Assembly: GCA_021741075.1 (NCBI GenBank)
Contig: JAIOYO010000002.1
Span: forward strand, 28,848-92,847
Reading direction: 5' to 3'
Origin: Flavobacteriales bacterium
Lineage (GTDB): Bacteria > Bacteroidota > Bacteroidia > UBA10329
Length of the DNA: 64,000 nucleotides
Part shown: in pieces, positions 12,558 through 25,384 of the stretch
How positions within the stretch are numbered: position 1 is the first letter of the stretch
Layout of the letters: every line of letters starts with the position of its first letter
Program-made: the position numbers and the translations under genes
Notes under the pieces: model-generated
Seen by the model: only the letters and a program-made list of their open reading frames with translations
Told to the model about the DNA's origin: nothing
The model's database searches: none

Positions 12558-13565
12558 TCAAGCAAATTGATTTGCGTTCAGTCCCAACCAATCTAAACTC
12601 GAATTGCAGAAAATATTCTCCAAATCCTGTTGTGGAAGATTCATCTCTTCAATGAATTTTCCGATTTCCAAATCGCCTAGCGGGAATGGATAATCGCTTC
12701 CCAAACAGACTTTTTCGGAACCCACTTTGTCAATGATGAATTTAAGAGCATCTGCATCATGTGTAATGCAATCGACCCAAAACTTGCTTAGGTAATTGCG
12801 TGGGTTTACATCATTGTCAATAGCCACGAGGTCGGGGCGGCAATTGAAACCGTGTTCAATTCTACCAATTGTTGGAATGAAAGAGCCACCAGCGTGGGCG
12901 AAGCAAACTCGAAGGTTTGGCAGTTTTTCAAATATTCCAGCAAACACCATCGAGCAAATAGCTCTTGATGTTTCGGCTGGCATTCCTACCAACCACGGCA
13001 GCCAGTACTTCTTCATTTTGTCCATTCCCATCATGTTCCACGGGTGCACAAAAACCGCCATTCCGAGGTCTTGACAGGCTTCGAAAATGGGAAAGAACTC
13101 AGGTTCGTCAAGATTCTTATCGTTTATGTTTGAACCAATTTGCACGCCTGGAAATCCCAGCTCTTTGCAGTGCTGCAATTCATTAATGGCAAGGTCAGTA
13201 TCTTGCATGGGAAGGGTTCCCAACCCGATGTAATGCTTCTTGAATGGCGCGATGGATTGGGCCAAATCATCGTTCAAAAAACGTGCTACCTCCGCGCCAT
13301 CTTCGGGCTTTGCCCAATAGGAAAACAGCACCGGAATAGTACAAACTACCTGCACTTGCGTGTTGAATTGTGCATACTCCGGAATACGAATTTCTGGGTT
13401 CCAGCAGTTCTCCGTTATCTGTCGGAAGAATTTACCGCCTTGCATCATATTGGCCGTTCCAGGTTCAATATGGTCGAGCATGATAAAATCGCCATAGCCA
13501 AACTTGCGGGCAAAATCGGGCATTTTGCGCGGCATGATATGGGTATGCATGTCTATCTTAAGCAA
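12558..13565 (-). CDS. amidohydrolase-2 family protein (ACMSD-like metal-dependent decarboxylase/hydrolase)
   Basis: MLKIDMHTHIMP N-terminal HxH metal motif with TIM-barrel amidohydrolase_2 organisation. Confidence 0.55.
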   Translation of the reverse strand: MLKIDMHTHIMPRKMPDFARKFGYGDFIMLDHIEPGTANMMQGGKFFRQITENCWNPEIRIPEYAQFNTQVQVVCTIPVLFSYWAKPEDGAEVARFLNDDLAQSIAPFKKHYIGLGTLPMQDTDLAINELQHCKELGFPGVQIGSNINDKNLDEPEFFPIFEACQDLGMAVFVHPWNMMGMDKMKKYWLPWLVGMPAETSRAICSMVFAGIFEKLPNLRVCFAHAGGSFIPTIGRIEHGFNCRPDLVAIDNDVNPRNYLSKFWVDCITHDADALKFIIDKVGSEKVCLGSDYPFPLGDLEIGKFIEEMNLPQQDLENIFCNSSLDWLGLNANQFA

Positions 13566-14601
13566 GCTTCCCGTCTTTTAGCATTTGTGCATATTCCTTG
13601 GCAAAATAGGTAAGGATTGCCGAAGCGCCCGCTCGTTTAAAACTCAAGAGCATTTCGGGCATGGCTTTGTCGTAATCGAGCCAACCGTTTTGGGCTGCAG
13701 CTTTTAGCATGGCATATTCGCCACTTACGTTGTAGGCTGCTATTGGCAATTCAAACTTTTCTTTGAGAAGATGGATAATGTCTAGGTACAACAGCGCTGG
13801 CTTTACCATCAGAAAGTCTGCTCCTTCAGACGCATCTAATTCTGCTTCGCGAAGTGCTTCCCATTTGTTGGCTGGATCCATCTGGTAGGTTTTCTTGTCG
13901 CCCGATTTTGGTGCGCTGCCTAGCGCATCTCTAAACGGTCCGTAGTAGGCACTTGCATACTTGGCGGTGTAACTCATTATGCCCACGTTCTCAAAATCTT
14001 CGTCATCTAACTCTTCACGAATGTGCTGAATGCGTCCGTCCATCATATCCGATGGACCAATAATATCGATACCCACTTCTGCCTGTGCCACGGCCATTCT
14101 TCCAAGAATATCGAGCGTTTCGTCATTCAAGATTTTCCCATCTTCCACCAAGCCATCGTGTCCATCAGAACTGTACGGATCCATGGCCACATCGCTGATT
14201 AAACACGTTTCTGGAAACTCCTTTTTCAACTTTGAGATGGTGCGCAGGTAGAAGTTCTTCTGGCTGTAACTGTAGGTAGCAGTTTTGTCTTTCAGCGAAT
14301 CCTCTACCGCAGGAAAAAGCACAAACGAGCGCAATCCAAGGTTCATCGATTCTTCCACTTCTTTCAGCAATTTATCTTCCGAATAACGGTAGATGCCAGG
14401 CAGCGAACCAATCTCATCTTTAATTCCTTTTCCATCAACCATAAACAGCGGATAAATGAGGTTAGAAAGGTCTAAGCGCGTTTCGCGCACCATACTTCGT
14501 ATGGTTTCTGTGGCGCGGTTTCTTCTAGGTCGTTCAAGCATTGTTCTTACGGTGTCGGCCAAAGGTATAAACCTGTTGGCAACAGCATATCTTTGCTGCA
14601 T
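13558..14601 (-). CDS. hemB: porphobilinogen synthase (delta-aminolevulinate dehydratase)
   Basis: ERPRRNR N-terminal motif and active-site regions (SDVAMDPY, GPSDMMDGR) match HemB. Start may be the internal Met at MLERPRRNR (about 14538). Confidence 0.8.
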   Translation of the reverse strand: MQQRYAVANRFIPLADTVRTMLERPRRNRATETIRSMVRETRLDLSNLIYPLFMVDGKGIKDEIGSLPGIYRYSEDKLLKEVEESMNLGLRSFVLFPAVEDSLKDKTATYSYSQKNFYLRTISKLKKEFPETCLISDVAMDPYSSDGHDGLVEDGKILNDETLDILGRMAVAQAEVGIDIIGPSDMMDGRIQHIREELDDEDFENVGIMSYTAKYASAYYGPFRDALGSAPKSGDKKTYQMDPANKWEALREAELDASEGADFLMVKPALLYLDIIHLLKEKFELPIAAYNVSGEYAMLKAAAQNGWLDYDKAMPEMLLSFKRAGASAILTYFAKEYAQMLKDGKLA

Positions 14602-16989
14602 TCGATGATTTTCAAATCGCCATTATTTAAGCGCGTTTTAATTCTAGCATTTGGCGTTGGCTGTCTATGGTTGGGAATCACCACTTACCAAGGAGTTTCC
14701 TTCCTATTGAATCCAAACGTTTCTATAACACCAGATACGAGTCAATCAATCATTCCGAAGGGCACTCATATCATGACGCGCTTATTGCAAGACGCAATCA
14801 ATCGAGAAAACATTGTCATGCTTCCGTTTGAGATGACTCACAAATTGAGATTGATTGATTTCCTGTTAAAGAACACACATTGGTTGAATCAGGATTGGAA
14901 GGCCTCAATGAAGCAATGGCGAGCAGAAATGTTACTTGATTATGGAAGCAGCGAACAGGCGATAACCCAAATTGAAGATTTGATGATTCAATTAGGCTAC
15001 GCAACCGACCATGTGTCAGAAGAAAACGTCTACTTAATGAGGTTGTTGGCTGTGGCTCACCTAAGGGCTGGAGAACAAGAAAATTGCTTCAGCAATCATA
15101 ATGCAAAATCGTGCATTTTTCCGTTCCACCCTCTGGCATATCATAAGACTGAAGAACATGTGACTAGAGCCAGTGAAATTTATTCGAAAATCTTGGCATT
15201 TGCGCCAAATGACCGAACAGCAAGGTGGTTATTGAATGTATGTCAAAGTGCTTTAGGAAACTACCCTAATGGTCTTGCAGAAGAGCTGCTTGTGCCTATT
15301 CCGCAGGCTTGTACCGAAGTAGATAGAGGCTCAATTTTCGAAAATAAAGCCGCAGCGCTTGGCATTGATGACGGAAGAGTGGCAGGTGGTGTGGTTATCG
15401 ATGATTTTAACAATGATGGGTTGTTTGACCTATTCGTGTCATCGTTTGGTATAAAAGACCAGTTAAAATATTACGAACGTGTTGCTGACGGCACATTCGT
15501 AGATAAAACAAAGCAAGCTGGTATTCTGGGGCTTACTGGAGGATTGAATATGGTTCAGGCTGATTACAATAACGATGGACTGGTTGATTTACTGGTTTTG
15601 CGTGGTTCTTGGTTTGGGGCTTCGGGCTGCTACCCTAATTCGTTGCTAAAAAACCTTGGTAACGGAACTTTTGAAGACGTGACTATTGAAAGCGGGCTCT
15701 ATTCTGAATTTCCAACGCAAGTTGCATGTTGGGGAGATTTTAACCTTGATGGATGGGTTGATGTTTTTATTGGGAATGAAGTACGCGATGAGGACGTTTA
15801 CAACAGCAATACCAAGGAGGATGCATATCCAAGCGAATTTTATGTGAACAATGGCGATGGAACCTTCACCAACTTAGCAAGCAAATACGGTTTGGAGATA
15901 AATGGATTTGTAAAAGGTGCGGTTTGGACAGATATTGACAATGATCGATTGCAAGACCTTCTCGTATCCGTCAAAGGGAGAGGAAACCTTCTTTTTCACA
16001 ACCAAGGAGGAACATCAATAGGTAATTGGTCATTCCAAAACATATCAAAAACAGCAGATATAAAAGACCCTATTCAAAGCTTTGGCGCTGCCTCGTTTGA
16101 TATTGACAATGATGGGTTTCAGGACTTGATTATATGTGATTATGATGATATTAATAACACTCCCGAAAAGGCATTTGTGTCTGAAATGCTTGGCGAAAAA
16201 GCAGTAGTAACCATGGCCGTATATCACAATAATGGTAATAACACATATGAAGATATCACCCAAAAGGCTGGATTAGGCAAACAACTGTACACCATGGGAT
16301 TCAATTATGGTGATTACAACAATGATGGGTTTCTTGACTTCTTTGCTGGAACTGGAGCGCCCGACTATTCATCCTTGGTGCCAAATCGGCTTTTCAAGAA
16401 CGCTGGAAATAACCAATTTGAAGATGTTACCTTTTCTTACGGTTTTGGTTCTCTTCAAAAAGGACATGGGGTGAGTTTTGCCGACCTTGACCATGATGGT
16501 AATCTAGACATCTATCTGGTTCAAGGTGGAGCATTTCAGGGAGATCAATACCCAAATGCCTGCTATATGAACTCTGGGAATAACGGTTCTTGGCTATCGA
16601 TGAAGCTGATTGGATCCAAGTCAAACCGATCAGCAATTGGTGCAGTAGTTAGGGTTGACTTTACAGATTCATTACATAACAAACGTTACCTATTTAGAAC
16701 CGTTAGTTCTGGTGGAAGTTTCGGTGCAAATCCGTTTGATGTGCATGTTGGTCTCGGGAATACATCTACTATTGATTCAATAACGGTTACATGGCCAAAT
16801 AAAAACCACACCACGCAAACGTTTAGGACAATAAGCGTAAATCAGTTCTTGGTTATTAGAGAAGATTCGGACCATATAGAAATCGTTCAGAAAAATAAAA
16901 TTTCAATAGAATCAAACTCCACAAGTAGTGGGTCCTGTATCCTTGTTCCTAGTACAGTTAAAAATCAGTCAAACACATGGCGATGGTGA
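14593..16989 (+). CDS. CRTAC1-family protein: FG-GAP/VCBS repeats plus ASPIC/UnbV C-terminal domain
   Basis: Repeated D-x-N/D-x-DG-x-x-D-L calcium-binding loops (FNNDGLFDL, DYNNDGLVDL, FDIDNDGFQDL, DLDHDGNLDI) and a C-terminal UnbV_ASPIC-like segment. N-terminal signal/TM. Confidence 0.65.
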   Translation: MLHSMIFKSPLFKRVLILAFGVGCLWLGITTYQGVSFLLNPNVSITPDTSQSIIPKGTHIMTRLLQDAINRENIVMLPFEMTHKLRLIDFLLKNTHWLNQDWKASMKQWRAEMLLDYGSSEQAITQIEDLMIQLGYATDHVSEENVYLMRLLAVAHLRAGEQENCFSNHNAKSCIFPFHPLAYHKTEEHVTRASEIYSKILAFAPNDRTARWLLNVCQSALGNYPNGLAEELLVPIPQACTEVDRGSIFENKAAALGIDDGRVAGGVVIDDFNNDGLFDLFVSSFGIKDQLKYYERVADGTFVDKTKQAGILGLTGGLNMVQADYNNDGLVDLLVLRGSWFGASGCYPNSLLKNLGNGTFEDVTIESGLYSEFPTQVACWGDFNLDGWVDVFIGNEVRDEDVYNSNTKEDAYPSEFYVNNGDGTFTNLASKYGLEINGFVKGAVWTDIDNDRLQDLLVSVKGRGNLLFHNQGGTSIGNWSFQNISKTADIKDPIQSFGAASFDIDNDGFQDLIICDYDDINNTPEKAFVSEMLGEKAVVTMAVYHNNGNNTYEDITQKAGLGKQLYTMGFNYGDYNNDGFLDFFAGTGAPDYSSLVPNRLFKNAGNNQFEDVTFSYGFGSLQKGHGVSFADLDHDGNLDIYLVQGGAFQGDQYPNACYMNSGNNGSWLSMKLIGSKSNRSAIGAVVRVDFTDSLHNKRYLFRTVSSGGSFGANPFDVHVGLGNTSTIDSITVTWPNKNHTTQTFRTISVNQFLVIREDSDHIEIVQKNKISIESNSTSSGSCILVPSTVKNQSNTWRW

Positions 16990-17327
16990 GGAATTGACAG
17001 AATAAGAATACAAATCCATTTCGCCTTCCATGGCCGCCCCAAGCAACCGCTTGAGCATAGGGGCAAGTACTCCGACTTTGCTGCCTCGCTATGTTCCATT
17101 CTTCAACTTTTCTATCGCTTCCCTCTCAAAGTTGGCGTAATCAAACTTGTCTTTCTGTTCTCCTTTCATGTTCTGTGTCGTTTTCAGTTTCCAAATTAAT
17201 AATTCTTACTGCTGATACAGTTTATTGTACAGACTCTCAAAGGAGTTCGGTAATCCAATTAGGCTCTTTCAACCATTCGTTTCCATTACCATCAACCAAA
17301 ACAAACAGCTTAGCTTTGCCAGCCGAA

Positions 17328-17954
17328 ATGCTACGCACGCAAACACTCACGTTTTCTTATCCGAATGGAACGCCATTCGCATTTCCAGACCTGAATGTAG
17401 CTGCTAATGAAGCTGTGCTTGTTCTCGGAAACTCGGGAAAAGGCAAAACCACACTGCTTCATTTATTGGCAGGGTTGATGGATGCAACAGATGGAACCAT
17501 TGTGTTGGATGGCACCAATATGGCCACGTTGAAAGGCTCGGCAAGAGACCGTTTTCGAGGTCAACACATCGGAATTGTGTTTCAGCAATCACAGTTTATT
17601 CGTTCTATAAGCGTGCTGCAAAACCTGCGCTTGGCGCGTTCGCTTGCTGGACTTCCTGAAGACGATGCATTTGCAGAAACCCTGCTTTCCGAACTCGGAA
17701 TATCGGAACGGAAAAACGCCAGACCCAACGAATTAAGCATTGGCGAACGACAACGGGTTGCAATCGCTCGAGCATTGGTTACTAAACCCAAAATTGTGTT
17801 GGCCGATGAACCAACCTCTGCATTAGACGATGAAAATTGCGAAGCCGTGGCGGCACTTTTTGAACGAACAGTTACAGGTCATGGAGCGGCTTTGGTAATT
17901 GTAACACACGATCAGCGTTTGAAAAACAGATTTCAAAACTCGGTTTCGTTATGA
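17328..17954 (+). CDS. ABC transporter ATP-binding protein (LolD/MacB-type)
   Basis: Walker A GNSGKGKTT, signature LSIGERQRV, Walker B VLADEPTSALD. Start taken at the internal ATG 17328; the ORF upstream of that lacks homology. Confidence 0.8.
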   Translation: MLRTQTLTFSYPNGTPFAFPDLNVAANEAVLVLGNSGKGKTTLLHLLAGLMDATDGTIVLDGTNMATLKGSARDRFRGQHIGIVFQQSQFIRSISVLQNLRLARSLAGLPEDDAFAETLLSELGISERKNARPNELSIGERQRVAIARALVTKPKIVLADEPTSALDDENCEAVAALFERTVTGHGAALVIVTHDQRLKNRFQNSVSL

Positions 17955-19171
17955 GGATGTTGCAGCTAGCATACGCAAACCTAAAGGAGCATTTCCTTTC
18001 TACCATTCTTAGCGTAATGCTATTGGGAATTGGCGTAGGAATGGTCTCATTTATCGTCACGGTTAGCGAGCAACTTAACGACCGTTTTAACCGCGACATC
18101 CGTGGTATAGACATGGTGGTGGGCGCCAAGGGCAGTCCGCTGCAGCTCATTCTTTCGGCAGTATATCAAATTGACAACCCTACGGGGAATATTCCGCTTG
18201 CAGAAGTGAACAAACTGAAACGAAACCCACTCATTAAATACAGCATTCCGCTTTCGTATGGCGATAGTTATCAGGGCTACCGCATTGTGGGTACAGACTC
18301 GCTTTATCTAAAGCATTATGGGGCCACTTTTTTTGAAGGAAATGTGTGGAACCGCAGCATGGATGTGGTTTTGGGAAGTGCCGTTGCCGAAAAACTTAAC
18401 CTAAAAATAGGCGCCCATTTTCATGGGAACCATGGGTTTGATGAAGAAGGTCACGCACATGATGATTCCCACTATAATGTGGTGGGAATTTTAAATGAAA
18501 CAGGAACAGTTGCGGATAGGCTTATTCTCACATCTACCGCAAGTGTTTGGGATATTCACAATCATCATGAAGATGAACATGACCACGACCACGCTAGTTG
18601 CGACCATGACCATGTAAAGGATGCGCCCTCAGAAATTACTGCGCTATTAGTAAAATTTAAAAGCCCCATGGGCATCATGCAAATACCTCGTATGGTGAAT
18701 GAAAAAACATCCATGCAGGCGGCAATTCCAGCCATCGAAATCAATAGGCTTTATTCCTTGATGGGTGTCGGATTTACTACCCTGCAAATCATTGGAATGG
18801 TGATTATGTGTATTGCCGCTTTAAGCGTTTTCATCTCCTTGCTCAACTCCTTAAAAGAACGGAAGTACGAGCTCGCACTCATGCGTTCGTTGGGCGCATC
18901 GCCCTTCAAACTTTTTGGACTTATCATTCAAGAAAGCTTGCTGCTTTGCTTAGCTGGTTACACGCTTGGCATCATCTTGGGAAGGGTTGGCATCATGCTA
19001 CTTTCATCCATCGGAGAAGACCAATTTCAATTTTCAGTATCGCAAAGCGGTGTTGCTGATGTAGAAATTTGGCTGCTGCCACTCACGCTCTGCATCGGAC
19101 TTGTTGCAGCACTCATTCCTGCCTTCCGTGCGTATCGTTCAGACATTTCAAGCGTTTTGAGAAATGAATAG
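17951..19171 (+). CDS. FtsX/MacB-type ABC permease with His-rich periplasmic insertion
   Basis: N-terminal TM, large periplasmic domain, three C-terminal TMs (FtsX topology). Contains HFHGNHGFDEEGHAHDDSH and HNHHEDEHDHDHASCDHDH tracts. Overlaps the upstream ATPase by 4 nt. Confidence 0.7.
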   Translation: MRMLQLAYANLKEHFLSTILSVMLLGIGVGMVSFIVTVSEQLNDRFNRDIRGIDMVVGAKGSPLQLILSAVYQIDNPTGNIPLAEVNKLKRNPLIKYSIPLSYGDSYQGYRIVGTDSLYLKHYGATFFEGNVWNRSMDVVLGSAVAEKLNLKIGAHFHGNHGFDEEGHAHDDSHYNVVGILNETGTVADRLILTSTASVWDIHNHHEDEHDHDHASCDHDHVKDAPSEITALLVKFKSPMGIMQIPRMVNEKTSMQAAIPAIEINRLYSLMGVGFTTLQIIGMVIMCIAALSVFISLLNSLKERKYELALMRSLGASPFKLFGLIIQESLLLCLAGYTLGIILGRVGIMLLSSIGEDQFQFSVSQSGVADVEIWLLPLTLCIGLVAALIPAFRAYRSDISSVLRNE

Positions 19172-19610
19172 ACTCATCCCTTTTCTCTTTATCTCTTTAT
19201 CCCTCTTTTCTTATTCAGAAGGAAAGGCGCAGCACAAAAAGGTTGATTGGCCGTTGCTTGCCAAAGTTGTTTGGGGCGAGAAATATTTCAAAGAGTATGA
19301 CGAAACGGTCTTTTATCCCGATTTCAGCAAGGAAGTATTGGCATTGGATAGCGCCCTGATAGAAATTCAAGGATATGTGATTCCTGTTGATGTAGAATCT
19401 GGTTATTACGTGCTTTCGGCCAATCCGTATGCCTCTTGTTTTTTCTGCGGAAACGCAGGGCCCGAAAGCGTGATGGAACTTCAATTTCCAAAGTCGATGA
19501 AATCGGTGTTTAAGATGGATGAAATAGTCACGTTTAAAGGACGACTGAAGCTAAATTGGGATGATTTAGAGCACTGTAATTACATCTTGAAAAACGCCAC
19601 GCCAAAATGA
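19164..19610 (+). CDS. small secreted protein with conserved CFFCGNAGPE motif (DUF3299-like?)
   Basis: 148 aa with signal peptide. Motif GYVIPVD...SANPYASCFFCGNAGPE. Tandem paralog of the next gene. Confidence 0.5.
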   Translation: MNRLIPFLFISLSLFSYSEGKAQHKKVDWPLLAKVVWGEKYFKEYDETVFYPDFSKEVLALDSALIEIQGYVIPVDVESGYYVLSANPYASCFFCGNAGPESVMELQFPKSMKSVFKMDEIVTFKGRLKLNWDDLEHCNYILKNATPK

Positions 19611-20050
19611 TGCGGCTACTCATCGTATTTCTACTAATGATTAGTTCCTCTGCCGGATTCGCTCAAACATTGGTGAGTTGGGACACATTTGCGCAGGTTA
19701 CTTTCTACCGGCAATACTCAGAAACATTTGGGTTTGAGGTAAACGTAAAACCACCCGAATTTGCGCCCAAATTATTGGCCTATCAAGGAAAAGAAATTTT
19801 GGTGAAAGGTTACGTTATTCCTGTGGATGTGGAGTTGGGTATGTACATGGTTTCGGCCAATGCGTTTGCCAATTGCTTTTTTTGCGGAAATGCGGGGCCA
19901 GAAACGGTTGTGGAGATTTTTCCTTCGAGCAAATTACCTCGTTTTAAGACGGATCAAATTGTCACGTTCAAGGGCATTCTTCAAATAAACAAGGAAGGAG
20001 AAATGAATGCCGTGCCTTATCAGCTATTTCAGGCCAAAGTGATTAACTAA
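19607..20050 (+). CDS. small secreted protein with conserved CFFCGNAGPE motif (paralog)
   Basis: 147 aa with signal peptide. GYVIPVD...SANAFANCFFCGNAGPE. 4-nt overlap with the previous paralog. Confidence 0.5.
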   Translation: MMRLLIVFLLMISSSAGFAQTLVSWDTFAQVTFYRQYSETFGFEVNVKPPEFAPKLLAYQGKEILVKGYVIPVDVELGMYMVSANAFANCFFCGNAGPETVVEIFPSSKLPRFKTDQIVTFKGILQINKEGEMNAVPYQLFQAKVIN

Positions 20051-20055
20051 GGTGC

Positions 20056-20499
20056 CTACTTCTCTTTCAGTGCTCCACTAAAAGTGTATTCTTCTTTAAT
20101 CTTACCTTTTTTAGAAACAGTAGCCTTCCCTTCTATTTGGTCAACCAGCACCTTTCCTTCCCACTTAAGCGACATTCCTTTCTGATTTCTGTTGATGGCT
20201 TGAAAGTGATATACCGCATCTTCCATAAGCTTTTCAACTTTAGAAATGGCGTACTCGCCCATTTGAAAACCTCCGCGGTCGGCACTTCGCATTTGAACGG
20301 TTGACATTTTATTGGTTCGAAAACTCAACTCTTCTTCAAACGGCTCTTCCTTTTTCTTCTTGTCGGAAACTTCCTCCATGGTAATCACAAAAACCTTTCG
20401 ATCAAGGAGTTTATCTTTTGGCCTTTTCTGTGCAAACGCACTTTGAACAAGAACTAGCAAGACAACAACCACAGACAATTTTCTTACAATCATGCTCAT
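20056..20499 (-). CDS. hypothetical secreted protein
   Basis: Signal peptide VVLLVLVQSAFAQ, followed by a Lys/Glu-rich sequence. Confidence 0.4.
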   Translation of the reverse strand: MSMIVRKLSVVVVLLVLVQSAFAQKRPKDKLLDRKVFVITMEEVSDKKKKEEPFEEELSFRTNKMSTVQMRSADRGGFQMGEYAISKVEKLMEDAVYHFQAINRNQKGMSLKWEGKVLVDQIEGKATVSKKGKIKEEYTFSGALKEK

Positions 20500-20942
20500 C
20501 CAAAGTTCCTTAAATACTCGATTTTGTCGTAAAGATTGGCTTTCAACTGACTGCCAGCTATTCTAAAATCTTGCATTTCGTCTGCCATATCCTTGTGCTT
20601 AAAAGGCAGCTCGCGGTCTTTCAGTAACACTCGGTCTTCAACTACGCGTTGAAGGTATTCTTCGTGCATTTTCAGTCTGTTCTTCTGGTTTTCAACCCGG
20701 TGCTCAACAAACGAAGTCAGTGTTTCTTTTAGTAACTGAATGTCCCTTTTTTCAACTGGATCAGACGCTTTTAAACCATAAATATCAACCATTCGCTGAT
20801 AGAACAAAAGGTCTATAACCAACGTGTTGAGTTCTGATTGCCATTCGCGGGTTTCGCTATGGTTGCGCTGCGCCTGTTTTCTATCGTTTACCTCTACCGA
20901 CATGAACCAAATATAGCTAGGATCAATGAAACTGAAATGCAA
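20496..20942 (-). CDS. hypothetical protein
   Basis: 148-aa ORF, 4-nt overlap with the downstream gene, helical and charged. No motif recognised. Confidence 0.35.
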   Translation of the reverse strand: MHFSFIDPSYIWFMSVEVNDRKQAQRNHSETREWQSELNTLVIDLLFYQRMVDIYGLKASDPVEKRDIQLLKETLTSFVEHRVENQKNRLKMHEEYLQRVVEDRVLLKDRELPFKHKDMADEMQDFRIAGSQLKANLYDKIEYLRNFG

Positions 20943-22092: not shown

Positions 22093-22968
22093 ATGACAAT
22101 CCAAAATCCTCAGGTTTTTACTGACAAGCAACTCCAACGCCATTTTGATGACTTCGGGTTTGTGCGAATTAATTTGCTCAATCTGGAGGAAACAGAGGAG
22201 CTGTTAAATTCTTATGAAGCACTTCCCCGCCCACGAGAATCTGGGTTTCACTGTACTATGTTTAGTCCAGATGCGGATTTGAAAACGTCAGTCGATTCCA
22301 TTATTAAAAACGCTTTGGTTGAAAAACTGAAACCACACTTTAAACAACACACTGCTCTGTATGGAAATTTTATGGTGAAAGAGCCAGGAGAAGAAAGCGA
22401 CTGGTTTGTGCACCAAGATTGGACCTATGTGGATGAAGCACAACATGTAAGTGTTGCCGTTTGGGTCCCACTAGTCGACCTCACCGAGAAAAACGGTGTT
22501 CTGTGTGTTGTTCCTGGTTCCCAAAAGATTCCAAATACGGTTAGAGGCCCAGGGGTGCATGATCCGTGGACAGATTTGCATCAAGTCATCAAAGAAGAAT
22601 ATCACGAAAAAGTTTTTCTAAAAGCAGGAGAAGCTATAGTGTGGCACCATCGTTTGGTTCACTTCTCGCCACCAAACATGTCTGATGAGCCCAGAATTGC
22701 AGCAACGCTTATCTGCACTCCAACCAATGTGCCGGTGTATCACTACTGGAAAGATCCATTGCAACAAGGAACTTTGGCCAGAAAATACCAGGTCGATTGC
22801 CGTTTTTTCATGAACTATGACATTGTGAATGAGCCAGCTAATGTGCCGTTTTCAGGACTGGTAGACAGCCACTTCCCAGATTTGGACCTGAACAGACTGA
22901 AGTCATTTTCCAATGAGCCTGTCGATGCTAGCTTTGTACACGGACCTCCACTGACAACCAATGCATAG
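22093..22968 (+). CDS. PhyH-family Fe(II)/2-oxoglutarate dioxygenase
   Basis: HQDWTYVDE (HxD facial triad) ... HHRLVHFSPPN distal His. Confidence 0.7.
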   Translation: MTIQNPQVFTDKQLQRHFDDFGFVRINLLNLEETEELLNSYEALPRPRESGFHCTMFSPDADLKTSVDSIIKNALVEKLKPHFKQHTALYGNFMVKEPGEESDWFVHQDWTYVDEAQHVSVAVWVPLVDLTEKNGVLCVVPGSQKIPNTVRGPGVHDPWTDLHQVIKEEYHEKVFLKAGEAIVWHHRLVHFSPPNMSDEPRIAATLICTPTNVPVYHYWKDPLQQGTLARKYQVDCRFFMNYDIVNEPANVPFSGLVDSHFPDLDLNRLKSFSNEPVDASFVHGPPLTTNA

Positions 22969-23812
22969 ACGGGTATTAAAAGATGCTGAGCTGCAAGCCA
23001 GATTCGATCAGGACGGATTTGTGGTCATTGATATGTTCTCAAATCAAGAATTCAACGAGTTGAAATCGATTCTGAGCCAGCTCAATGAGGAGAAGAAAGA
23101 CCTACAGTTCAATATCAATACCGATTACAAACTCAGTTTTTTCAGCACAGAACCTAATTATAGGAAACAGGTATTCAATTCGATTAGCGCGTTCTGCATG
23201 CCTGTTGTAAGTCGGTTTTTGGATGAATATGAACCGCTCATCGTGAACACGTTTGACAAGGAACCTGGCGAAGGAGAAGTACCCATTCATCAGAATTGGA
23301 CATTCGTTGATGAATCGAAGGCCACTTCCGTATCGGTTTGGATACCGATGATAGACACCACACGCGTCAACGGAACAATGGAGGTGGTGAAAGGCAGCCA
23401 TCGCGTTCTTTCAAGCTATCGTAGTCCCTCTATTCCGTGGGTGTTTGAAAACCTGCGGCATGAGATCAGAACCAAGTACATGGAACCGATTGATGCAAAG
23501 GTCGGTCAGGCCGTGATTCTGGATGATAGTATTCTGCATTACACCTCGCAAAATGATAGTGAAACCGTTCGGTCGGCCATTCAGCTGATTATGAAACCGA
23601 ACGATGTGCCTGCCATTCATTATCACATACCTTCCACCAGCTCTGTTGGTGTAGATGTATATGAGGTGGATTGGGAATTTTTCACACGGTTCAATATGAA
23701 TGAACCTCCTACAGGTGTGAAAAAGGTAGATGAATTGACCATCCACCAACATTTCCTTACCGAAGCTGAATTGGTTGATAGGATTGCACCATTGAAAGTC
23801 GCTGATCGCTGA
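22961..23812 (+). CDS. PhyH-family dioxygenase paralog with HxN variant of the iron motif
   Basis: IHQNWTFVDE aligns to the HxDW..VDE motif of its neighbours but carries Asn in place of Asp. Distal His in ILHYTSQN. Overlaps the upstream gene by 8 nt. Confidence 0.6.
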   Translation: MHRRVLKDAELQARFDQDGFVVIDMFSNQEFNELKSILSQLNEEKKDLQFNINTDYKLSFFSTEPNYRKQVFNSISAFCMPVVSRFLDEYEPLIVNTFDKEPGEGEVPIHQNWTFVDESKATSVSVWIPMIDTTRVNGTMEVVKGSHRVLSSYRSPSIPWVFENLRHEIRTKYMEPIDAKVGQAVILDDSILHYTSQNDSETVRSAIQLIMKPNDVPAIHYHIPSTSSVGVDVYEVDWEFFTRFNMNEPPTGVKKVDELTIHQHFLTEAELVDRIAPLKVADR

Positions 23813-23815
23813 CCT

Positions 23816-25384
23816 ATGCCAACATCCGGTTTAGCCAAATCCTTCATTGATTTGAAAACACTTGACGAGCGTGGTTTCACGTTGGTTTCCGCTCTTTCGC
23901 TAAAGGACATACTGAACCTGTTGATATTTTTCGATAAGCATCCTCATACTTCGAAGGGAGGCTCGTTTCATTCCACCATGGAACAGACAGAAGTTGACTA
24001 CAAGAAAATGGTTGACGAAAAGCTAAAGTCTGTTCTTAGTGACCAGATAGAACTGATGCTGCCGGGTCATGAGATCCTGTTCGGCAACTTTTTGGTGAAA
24101 GAGCCCGGGGCGAGCGGAAGTGTGGGTATTCACACCGATTGGTCGTATGTTGACGAATCCGTTCACACGTCATACAACCTCTGGATTCCTTTGACGGATG
24201 TGAATGAGCACAACGGATGTCTACATGTGTGGCCCGAAAGTCACAGGTTCACTCCACGTGTACGGACAACCCCCTATGTTCCGTTCAGCACTAAAGAGCA
24301 GCAAATGGTCCAGTTCAACTCTGTAGCGGTTCTATTATCTGCAGGACAGGGAGTGCTCTACCATAGCGGCCTTCTTCATTATTCCAACCCGAACAATACA
24401 CCAGATAATAGACCGGCCATTGCCTTGGTCATTGTTCCGAAGGGCGCACAACCGATGCATTACTATCGGCCAGAGCCGAACGGGTCAGAAGTGGAAGTCC
24501 ACAAGGTGGACCGCTCGTTTTTCCTTACGCACCTGCCTCAGTCCCGACCAACAGGAACCAAATTAGTGAAGACTGACGAAGTGCCGGTGTTCACATTAAG
24601 TACCGAAAGCGTACTGGAATCAGATGCTACGCAAACCAAGGTTTCTAACTACTATGACGAGTGGACCGGGGCTTACAGGGATATTTATGGAGATGTAATC
24701 CAAGCATTCCGTCCGAAAGATGAGACCGCTCTTCTCAACTATATCATGCACAGCGCTAGGATTGAAAACGGCCAAAGGATAGTCGATGCCGGTTGCGGCA
24801 TCTGCGGTCCTGCCATTTACTTCGCTCAGAACCGGGCGGTGCACATTGAGGCCATTACCCTATCGGGCGTGCAGACATCGATTGCAAACGAACGTATTTC
24901 TGCGGCCGGTCTACAAGAACTGATAACCTGCACTCAAGGCGATTTCCGGCTAATGGATTCTCTTGTAACCAGCGGAATGGATGGTGTCATCTTCTTAGAA
25001 TCGCTGGGGCATAGCACCAATGCACAAATGGCCATTCTGGCAGCCTACAGGGTGCTAAGGACGGGCGGCTTCATCTACATAAAGGACTTTTTTCCGCGAG
25101 AGTCGGCCAATCCAGAGATTCAACAGCGTATCGATAAAACAATAGACAACATCAATCGAGCATATAACTATGCCGTGCTCGACCTGAATAAGACATTGAG
25201 CCACCTTCGGAAAGCAGGGTTTGTAATAGATTTCATTCAAAGCCTGAACTTTGAAAGCGATACAGAAATTAGACGCAATTTTGAATCACAACACGGCATA
25301 TCGGTTTTCGAAGGAGGGGAGTTTATGCCAGCAGAGTGGCTCGAAATAAGGGCTGTTAAATATTTTGAGGAGGATGATAGATAA
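23816..25384 (+). CDS. fusion protein: PhyH-family dioxygenase (N) plus class I SAM-dependent methyltransferase (C)
   Basis: N-terminal half has GIHTDWSYVDE ... LLHYSNPN. C-terminal half has MTase motif I RIVDAGCGICGPAIYFA and post-I acidic/Rossmann pattern. Confidence 0.7.
   Translation: MPTSGLAKSFIDLKTLDERGFTLVSALSLKDILNLLIFFDKHPHTSKGGSFHSTMEQTEVDYKKMVDEKLKSVLSDQIELMLPGHEILFGNFLVKEPGASGSVGIHTDWSYVDESVHTSYNLWIPLTDVNEHNGCLHVWPESHRFTPRVRTTPYVPFSTKEQQMVQFNSVAVLLSAGQGVLYHSGLLHYSNPNNTPDNRPAIALVIVPKGAQPMHYYRPEPNGSEVEVHKVDRSFFLTHLPQSRPTGTKLVKTDEVPVFTLSTESVLESDATQTKVSNYYDEWTGAYRDIYGDVIQAFRPKDETALLNYIMHSARIENGQRIVDAGCGICGPAIYFAQNRAVHIEAITLSGVQTSIANERISAAGLQELITCTQGDFRLMDSLVTSGMDGVIFLESLGHSTNAQMAILAAYRVLRTGGFIYIKDFFPRESANPEIQQRIDKTIDNINRAYNYAVLDLNKTLSHLRKAGFVIDFIQSLNFESDTEIRRNFESQHGISVFEGGEFMPAEWLEIRAVKYFEEDDR

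Follow-up and report, generated by a model that had tools for sequence, protein, structure and literature searches.

We analysed a 64,000-nt stretch of a Flavobacteriales contig (JAIOYO010000002.1, assembly GCA_021741075.1), called the window throughout, and focus here on four plus-strand genes between positions 17328 and 20050 that encode an ATP-binding cassette (ABC) transporter and two small secreted proteins. In the list of open reading frames (ORFs) of the 64-kb window these genes meet at overlapping junctions and form one operon in the order ATPase, permease and two secreted small paralogs. The ABC ATPase subunit (17328-17954) has 208 residues, the same length as in its orthologs, and the FtsX/MacB-type permease (17951-19171) has 406 residues and matches, at 100% identity, a protein from an NCBI metagenome-assembled genome (MAG) named 'Flavobacteriales bacterium'. 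Then come paralog 1 (19164-19610, 148 residues) and paralog 2 (19607-20050, 147 residues), both of them secreted DUF3299-like proteins with a predicted oligonucleotide/oligosaccharide-binding (OB) fold. In the permease, 14 of the 16 His residues fall within residues 156-221, where tract 1, HFHGNHGFDEEGHAHDDSH (residues 156-174; 18416-18472), contains H161 (18431-18433) and H170 (18458-18460), and tract 2, HNHHEDEHDHDHASCDHDH (residues 203-221; 18557-18613), begins with H203 (18557-18559) and runs on into a variable loop rich in His, Asp and Glu. Asp189 (18515-18517), in the periplasmic domain, is also conserved in the alignments. Each small protein carries the motif CFFCGNAGPE, encoded at 19437-19466 in paralog 1 and at 19874-19903 in paralog 2. 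The ORFs, both tracts and both motifs lie where a first-pass annotation of this DNA by a model had placed them. Of the 4-nt overlaps that it gave after the permease, the one between the two small genes holds (ATGA, as also at the ATPase/permease junction), whereas the permease and paralog 1 overlap by 8 nt (ATGAATAG).

The ATPase matched Pfam ABC_tran (1.1e-32) and the permease FtsX (4.5e-15) and MacB_PCD (4.9e-11), and in Pseudomonas aeruginosa the ATPase is 38% identical to PA4064 (E 2e-39) and the permease 30% identical to PA4065 (full length, 414 residues, E 6.6e-58). The P. aeruginosa record in question holds DUF2796, ABC ATPase, ABC permease and DUF3299 genes followed by oprG, and is the PA4063-PA4066 locus. 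The Zrg system (ZrgABCDE) of Vibrio cholerae and V. parahaemolyticus likewise comprises an ATPase, a MacB-like permease and a DUF3299 protein, ZrgE (PMC9817125, PMC9820375), and the ATPase in the window has a nucleotide-binding domain (NBD) of the PA4064/ZrgC type, its gene being separate from that of the permease. A Catenovulum permease is 29% identical to ours (E 2e-50) and has a partner protein that scores 4.4e-44 against PF11736, the Pfam DUF3299 family. BLASTP comparison with Escherichia coli LolC and LolE gave E values of 0.28 and 3.6e-7 respectively. Neither the ATPase nor the permease approached any NCBIfam equivalog cutoff, those for LolD, lolCE, DevA/C, FtsE and MacB included; the lolCE model (TIGR02212) scored 46 bits against a cutoff of 362 and LolD 172 against 308. 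An AlphaFold2 (AF2) model of the permease, with a mean predicted local distance difference test score (pLDDT) of 76.6, has a first transmembrane helix (TM1, residues 15-50), a periplasmic domain (residues ~51-259) and TM2-4. Its best Foldseek matches were LolCDE, MacB, Spr0695, HrtB, YbbP, FtsX and BceB, all type VII ABC proteins, with top E values of 1e-16 to 1e-9. Sequence similarity to solved structures is confined to the transmembrane region, and the fold is MacB/LolCDE-like. On this evidence we assign the transporter to the DUF3299-associated type VII (MacB-fold) ABC systems, and within these to the PA4063-PA4066/Zrg group.

This assignment bears on several functions that had been suggested for the operon. 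A lipoprotein-sorting variant was among them, and a Lol system was rejected as there is a single permease, the lolCE and LolD scores fall below their cutoffs, and LolC and LolE are matched so much more poorly than PA4065. A MacAB system was likewise rejected, the NBD being encoded by its own gene. Metal-gated efflux, also proposed, finds no membrane-fusion (HlyD-type) adaptor in the operon, nor among the 25 commonest Pfam families of neighbour genes at related loci. The label of exporter goes beyond the evidence as well: the permease folds like a type VII ABC mechanotransducer, and no observation made here indicates a direction of transport.

Conservation within the periplasmic domain is concentrated on a few residues. 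Among 117 permease orthologs of at least 60% identity, H158, H161, H170 and D189 are invariant, with H203 kept in 116 and H156 in 115. Across 58 Bacteroidota permeases H161, D189 and H203 are present in all, H170 and W200 in 57 each, and H156 and H158 are kept solely inside the window's own clade. Alignments also recover H161, H170, D189 and H203 in PA4065 and in the Catenovulum, Paracoccus and Chondrinema permeases; in the Deinococcus permease the second His, that at the H170 position, is shifted by one alignment column. The residues opposite these four are S, P, G and M in E. coli LolC and N, P, H and L in LolE. As aligned, therefore, the four periplasmic residues H161, H170, D189 and H203 are conserved across four phyla and absent from LolC/E. 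The first-pass annotation had named the lack of His tracts and CxxC in orthologs as evidence against a metal link; the orthologs keep the His residues and the CxxC, so that these features are not a chance occurrence.

The loop that follows H203 behaves quite differently from these fixed positions. Among relatives it contains from none to more than 20 His, and its sequence and length are poorly conserved; for residues 150-232 as a whole the His count ranges from 7 to 27 among the 117 orthologs. Residues 205-225 are predicted to be disordered (pLDDT <50). A His-rich loop is missing behind the last conserved His in PA4065 and in the permeases of Catenovulum and Deinococcus; a long one is also seen in the Paracoccus permease. 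In the PA4065 operon two His tracts, HDDHDHDHAH and HEHEHEHEHEHGH, are instead found in a separate protein, PA4063, and a tblastn search for homologs of PA4063 (DUF2796) found none in the window or in 96 related loci. Since PA4065 has no loop, and PA4063 is present there and absent here, the alignments place the His-rich module in cis in this system, on the permease, and in trans in Pseudomonas, on PA4063. ZrgA and PA4063 are reported to bind zinc through their His-rich loops (PMC9820375, PMC8561739), and we infer that the cis loop and the trans His-rich protein are functionally equivalent. A Catenovulum (Gammaproteobacteria) plasmid locus (L089:2301-5589) carries MerC, a divergent canonical DUF3299 gene, an ATPase and a permease, with no DUF2796/ZrgA gene and no His-rich loop. 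Such a locus, lacking both ZrgA and the loop, implies that this transporter family can do without the His-rich module.

Paralogs 1 and 2 share 45% identity (E 3e-35), and each begins with a signal-like hydrophobic segment ending in A-Q, as read from the sequence. Pfam and NCBIfam scans of both returned no match even at E 10. Their family has 982 representatives at 50% clustering (E <=1e-3), and all but two of the 149 best of these (147 of 149) carry C-(F/Y)-F-C-G-x-(A/G)-G-x-E; paralog 2 keeps every family-invariant residue. The suggestion that DUF3299 be tried as a lead proved right at the level of remote homology. MAG homologs 77-88% identical to paralog 2 carry the NCBI name 'DUF3299 domain-containing protein', PF11736 is matched by 25 of 147 family representatives (best E 1.8e-7), and hhalign of the family against the PA4066, Catenovulum and Vibrio DUF3299 proteins gave 84% (E 7.5e-6) over 87 colinear columns, the Cys motifs falling opposite each other; the profile-profile figure against one canonical DUF3299 sequence alone was 74%. 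The canonical G-A-C-(I/L)-H-x-P-P-P-P-x-N-Q aligns opposite S/N-C-F-F-C-G-N-A-G-P-E, the first Cys alone being common to both. In an alphaproteobacterial and Deinococcus branch the corresponding motif is C-P-F-C-S-(S/T)-D-x-D-W in 120 of 120 sequences. AF2 models paralog 1 as a beta barrel (pLDDT 79.5), and Foldseek matched it best to generic OB folds at E ~1e-3, among them RPA, Stn1/Ten1, the AspRS N-domain, YgiW and CcmE; the Cys motif sits in a low-confidence loop (pLDDT 59 for residues 91-100). PA4066, whose structure (4hsp) is reported to have an OB-like fold (PMC8561739), in agreement with the model, was found in PDB sequence and profile searches with the small-protein family at E 0.86-1.9. 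The top matches of those searches, RnfB, a thiol peroxidase and a transfer protein, looked spurious, resting on short Cys-containing stretches, and were discarded. Taken together, the comparisons support the small proteins as remote DUF3299 relatives of PA4066 and ZrgE.

When one genome per species was scanned, relatives of the small proteins were encoded at no fewer than 565 loci, of which 80 were kept. Almost all of those kept carry a Bacteroidota label (Flavobacteriales, Cytophagales and Saprospiraceae). About 60 have the ATPase, the permease and then one or two small proteins, two copies occurring in some Flavobacteriales lineages only, and about 20 have a stand-alone small protein in heterogeneous contexts. 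Downstream of the related operons we found no conserved gene association. Within the window's own clade the synteny reads hemB (divergent), ATPase, permease, small protein 1, small protein 2, two convergent small ORFs and ydjM. Some loci and proteins similar to this operon type appear under names such as Chryseobacterium gleum, Comamonadaceae, Alteromonas macleodii and Polaribacter MAGs (L006, L009, L078, P0295 and P0325); these oddly named loci and proteins are probably mis-binned or mislabelled metagenome assemblies.

The commonest families just upstream of the ABC operons in relatives are DUF6089 (12 loci), MerC (10), peroxiredoxin (9) and COG0523 CobW/CobW_C (8). In Cyclobacteriaceae the promoter region between divergent MerC-COG0523 and ABC genes bears two copies of a 7-1-7 palindrome, TGCAACAnTGTTGCA. 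Its core, TGCAA-N5-TTGCA, has 42 exact matches in 18 of 85 loci against 0.84 expected, with copies often paired ~25 bp apart (L016:3906-3959, L020:3721-3774, L027:3918-3971, L088:2704-2758 and 14 further loci). The copies lie in the promoters of the ABC/DUF3299-like and MerC-COG0523 operons and ahead of a TonB-dependent receptor gene, and in Echinicola the palindrome stands beside a Fur-family gene. A plasmid operon of Chondrinema litorale combines ATPase, folE, Fur-family repressor, permease and DUF3299 genes and is divergent from MerC-COG0523, with two palindrome boxes between. FolE paralogs are tied to Zur. The same has been described for COG0523 paralogs (PMC2770081). The Cytophagales context thus bears the hallmarks of a Zur-type regulon, and the 7-1-7 palindrome is a candidate Zur-type operator of this order. 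Zur is reported to control the zrg and PA4063-PA4066 operons themselves, and zinc starvation to induce them strongly (PMC9817125, PMC11481552).

A second association was seen in other phyla. In five of five loci, from Paracoccus, Martelella, Agrobacterium, Rhodovulum and Deinococcus (L087:3017-7321, L090:1105-5598, L094:5167-9382, L095:5085-9407 and L096:5150-9665), a PF00245 PhoA-type alkaline phosphatase gene (~585 residues) directly precedes the genes of a CxxC small protein, the ATPase and the FtsX permease on the same strand. PhoA-type alkaline phosphatases are zinc enzymes. Homology and the context in relatives bear out the idea of a metal-related system. Of the three metals that had been put forward for it, zinc is the one to which the known relatives and the neighbour genes elsewhere point; for nickel or copper specificity there is no support either way.

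The region immediately upstream of the operon in the window had been thought to be a 338-bp leader that might hold a regulator site. This expectation was not borne out, the leader being unconserved, without an Rfam match (E <=1, which also argued against a riboswitch or other RNA element) and without the palindrome of the relatives. The 338-bp spacer is lineage-specific: in close relatives the divergent hemB lies ~65 bp away from the ATPase gene. In the window a gene for a 798-residue FG-GAP/ASPIC-UnbV repeat protein (14593-16989) intervenes between hemB and the operon, and other relatives have a different gene, of 655-667 residues, between hemB and the ATPase gene. The presence of the FG-GAP/ASPIC gene at this variable spot explains the apparent leader. 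We also considered whether the spacer is a remnant of the hemB 5' end; tblastn gave no match and just a 24-nt match was seen, and the idea was dropped. Conservation in the spacer is found in the last ~45 nt before the ATG, shared with the sole relative having a similarly long spacer (L092). Within this stretch, 9 nt before the ATPase start codon, lies TAGCTTTG (17311-17318), and TAGTTTTG is found at the same place in three further loci (L001, L004 and L008). The Bacteroidetes -7 promoter consensus is TAnnTTTG, and TAGCTTTG is a candidate element of this kind. Sigma-70 promoter and terminator scans stayed at chance level.

Three further observations concern the neighbouring genes. The hemB gene (13558-14601, minus strand) encodes 5-aminolevulinate dehydratase (ALAD) with D-V-A-M-D-P-Y at the metal motif. 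Zinc-dependent ALADs have a Cys-rich D-x-C-x-C-x-Y motif, and because it is replaced here the product is probably a zinc-independent, Mg-type enzyme. Two overlapping minus-strand ORFs converge on the operon end (20056-20499, 147 residues, with a signal-like N-terminus, and 20496-20942, 148 residues); they are syntenic in all clade members examined and have no Pfam or NCBIfam match. Further on, positions 22093-25384 hold three consecutive PhyH-family (phytanoyl-CoA dioxygenase-like) genes, the third fused to a methyltransferase domain, these domain assignments being taken from syntenic genes in two related loci (L091 and L093).

Our preferred interpretation, to which we give a probability of roughly 60%, is that the operon encodes a Bacteroidota Zrg-type system for ATP-driven handling of periplasmic zinc by means of a His-rich loop, a His3-Asp site and DUF3299-like partners. 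In such a system the His-rich loop would serve as a low-affinity antenna for periplasmic Zn(II), doing in cis what ZrgA or PA4063 does in trans, and would feed the metal to a putative His3-Asp site formed by H161, H170, D189 and H203. As other type VII ABC proteins do, the transporter would relay ATP binding and hydrolysis in the cytoplasm through its long TM1 and TM2 helices, and the transmitted movement would remodel the periplasmic domain of the permease. Driven by this remodelling, metal could be passed between the site on the permease and the loop with the Cys pair in the DUF3299-like proteins, and would then move on either into periplasmic zinc enzymes or into an uptake route at the inner membrane. 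Overall, the system would serve to economise on zinc when it is scarce. We infer both the metal-site role of the four residues and the ATP-driven movement of metal to the OB-fold partners. Acquisition or allocation appears more likely than detoxification because an adaptor and outer-membrane partner are absent and the neighbours in relatives are of the starvation type.

Several considerations weigh against this interpretation and should be set beside it. The permease model is of low confidence in tract 1 (pLDDT 54 over residues 161-170). The small proteins in the window miss the Pfam DUF3299 threshold that a canonical member passes at 4.4e-44, the PA4066 structure was not in the top 50 Foldseek matches of the small-protein model, and the periplasmic CxxC may be just a disulfide. 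The local setting is also plain. Homologs of COG0523, MerC, Fur, FolE, PhoA and the boxed TonB receptor were all absent from the 64-kb window, where the operon's neighbours are housekeeping genes. A Zur-type box was looked for near the operon and none was found, the Cytophagales palindrome with one mismatch occurring three times in the window (at 22, 34522 and 47975), below chance and never near the operon. The zinc link proposed for this particular operon is therefore one of homology and conserved residues, not of local regulatory evidence. Moreover, type VII ABC proteins are not, to our knowledge, known to carry substrates across the inner membrane. Among the known relatives, PA4066 shows no evident zinc binding and single zrgE knockouts have no phenotype (PMC11481552, PMC9820375), and the homologous P. 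aeruginosa pump has been proposed as a cobalt-pyochelin exporter rather than a zinc importer (PMC11481552).

The alternative that survives best, although we regard it as unlikely, is a periplasmic metallation or activation machine, in which the complex would spend ATP on supplying exported apo-enzymes with zinc, or on activating them, by way of the OB-fold partner and with nothing crossing the inner membrane. It may be likened to FtsEX-EnvC or CcmAB-CcmE, with PhoA-type alkaline phosphatase as one client. In its favour are the order of phosphatase, CxxC small protein, ATPase and permease in all five alphaproteobacterial and Deinococcus loci, a permease fold like that of the mechanotransducing type VII ABC proteins, FtsEX included, and a weak resemblance of the small-protein model to CcmE, a periplasmic OB-fold chaperone and one of many OB folds matched. 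However, no alkaline phosphatase or other obvious client is present in the window, and none stands consistently beside the Bacteroidota operons. The Vibrio system, furthermore, supports growth under zinc chelation (PMC9820375), suggesting supply to the cytoplasm. The idea overlaps the Zrg-type zinc-handling interpretation that we prefer and differs from it mainly in the acceptor.

Export of a metal or metal-chelator complex from the cell or periplasm, for detoxification or for metallophore recycling as proposed for PA4064/PA4065, is in our view less probable again. MacB-fold pumps are typically exporters, the permease model is MacB-like by Foldseek, and the homology to PA4065 extends over the full length. 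Without PA4065, P. aeruginosa was found to have higher intracellular levels of cobalt and pyochelin (PMC11481552). Yet adaptor, outer-membrane channel and metallophore biosynthesis genes are absent in or next to the operon and from the commonest neighbour Pfam families across ~60 loci, and the neighbours seen in relatives, namely COG0523, a MerC-type importer and a Fur-family repressor, fit acquisition under scarcity, not detoxification. The weakest candidate is an ordinary FtsX-family transporter with a non-metal substrate (lipoprotein sorting, peptide or antibiotic efflux, or control of cell-wall hydrolases) and His-rich loops as incidental low-complexity insertions; the best NCBIfam similarities are indeed of LolD and lolCE type, all far under their cutoffs, and tract 2 varies in length and sequence, but a permease far nearer to PA4065 than to LolC/E, His/Asp positions invariant across four phyla, the persistent linkage to Cys-motif DUF3299-type proteins and, in relatives, to zinc-regulon genes, and the lack of a second permease paralog or of any LolA/B-like, HlyD-like or EnvC-like partner make it very improbable.

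A bolder proposal, which is speculative at this stage, joins the Zrg-type interpretation to the phosphatase linkage: the His3-Asp site and the partner's Cys-pair loop might form an ATP-powered periplasmic zinc relay that takes zinc off low-affinity ligands and passes it to exported apo-enzymes such as PhoA-type phosphatases, or to an uptake route. If true, the relay would be an energised metallochaperone acting outside the cytoplasm, and would explain how zinc acquisition in Vibrio and Pseudomonas is promoted by a MacB-fold ABC protein that is unable to import. The question matters as the Zrg and PA4063-PA4066 systems are important for pathogen growth under zinc starvation while their mechanism is disputed between zinc import and metallophore export, a dispute that arises because the permease has the fold of a non-importing machine. 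To this the present comparison adds handles that we did not meet in the cited literature: four periplasmic His/Asp residues invariant from Bacteroidota to Pseudomonas; a natural fusion of the His-rich module to the permease, which argues that ZrgA-like tracts act at the permease periplasmic domain; two alternative Cys motifs, C-x-x-C and C-x-H, at one DUF3299 partner position; and the strict association with PhoA-type phosphatases seen in other phyla. The comparison also yields a candidate Zur-type operator for Cytophagales. For the window itself the result is a family assignment and not a new kind of system.

PA4063-PA4066 is among the known systems closest to the operon. Both have a separate ATPase and a four-TM permease with a large periplasmic domain, both share the H-H-D-H positions, and in both the gene for a periplasmic protein of the DUF3299 superfamily directly follows the permease. 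The operon in the window differs in having no PA4063/DUF2796 gene and a His-rich loop inserted in the permease, in its two copies of a partner with S-C-F-F-C-G-x-A-G-P-E where PA4066 has G-A-C-I-H-V-P-P-P-P, and in lacking a recognisable Zur box. With ZrgABCDE, which contributes to growth of Vibrio under zinc chelation (PMC9820375), it shares the ATPase, MacB-like permease and DUF3299 architecture by literature description, whereas ZrgA (DUF2796) and ZrgD (DUF2607) have no counterpart in the operon; for sequence comparison, PA4063-66 and a single stand-alone DUF3299 protein of Vibrio fortis stood in for zrg. The small proteins resemble Pfam DUF3299 and 4hsp in being small, secreted, predicted to form an OB-like beta barrel and encoded beside the same permease family, and are unlike DUF3299 in giving no PF11736 match, in the replaced motif and in the missing canonical N-terminal extension. 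To MacAB-TolC and LolCDE the likeness is one of permease fold, topology and MacB_PCD and FtsX domains, and beyond the fold the periplasmic-domain sequence is unrelated. MacAB-TolC has a membrane-fusion protein and a fused NBD, and LolCDE a LolC/LolE permease pair without the conserved His/Asp residues; none of these features is shared by the operon. These comparisons identify the operon as a Flavobacteriales version of a Zrg-type system, with the His-rich loop in cis, no ZrgA and a duplicated CxxC-type DUF3299 partner.

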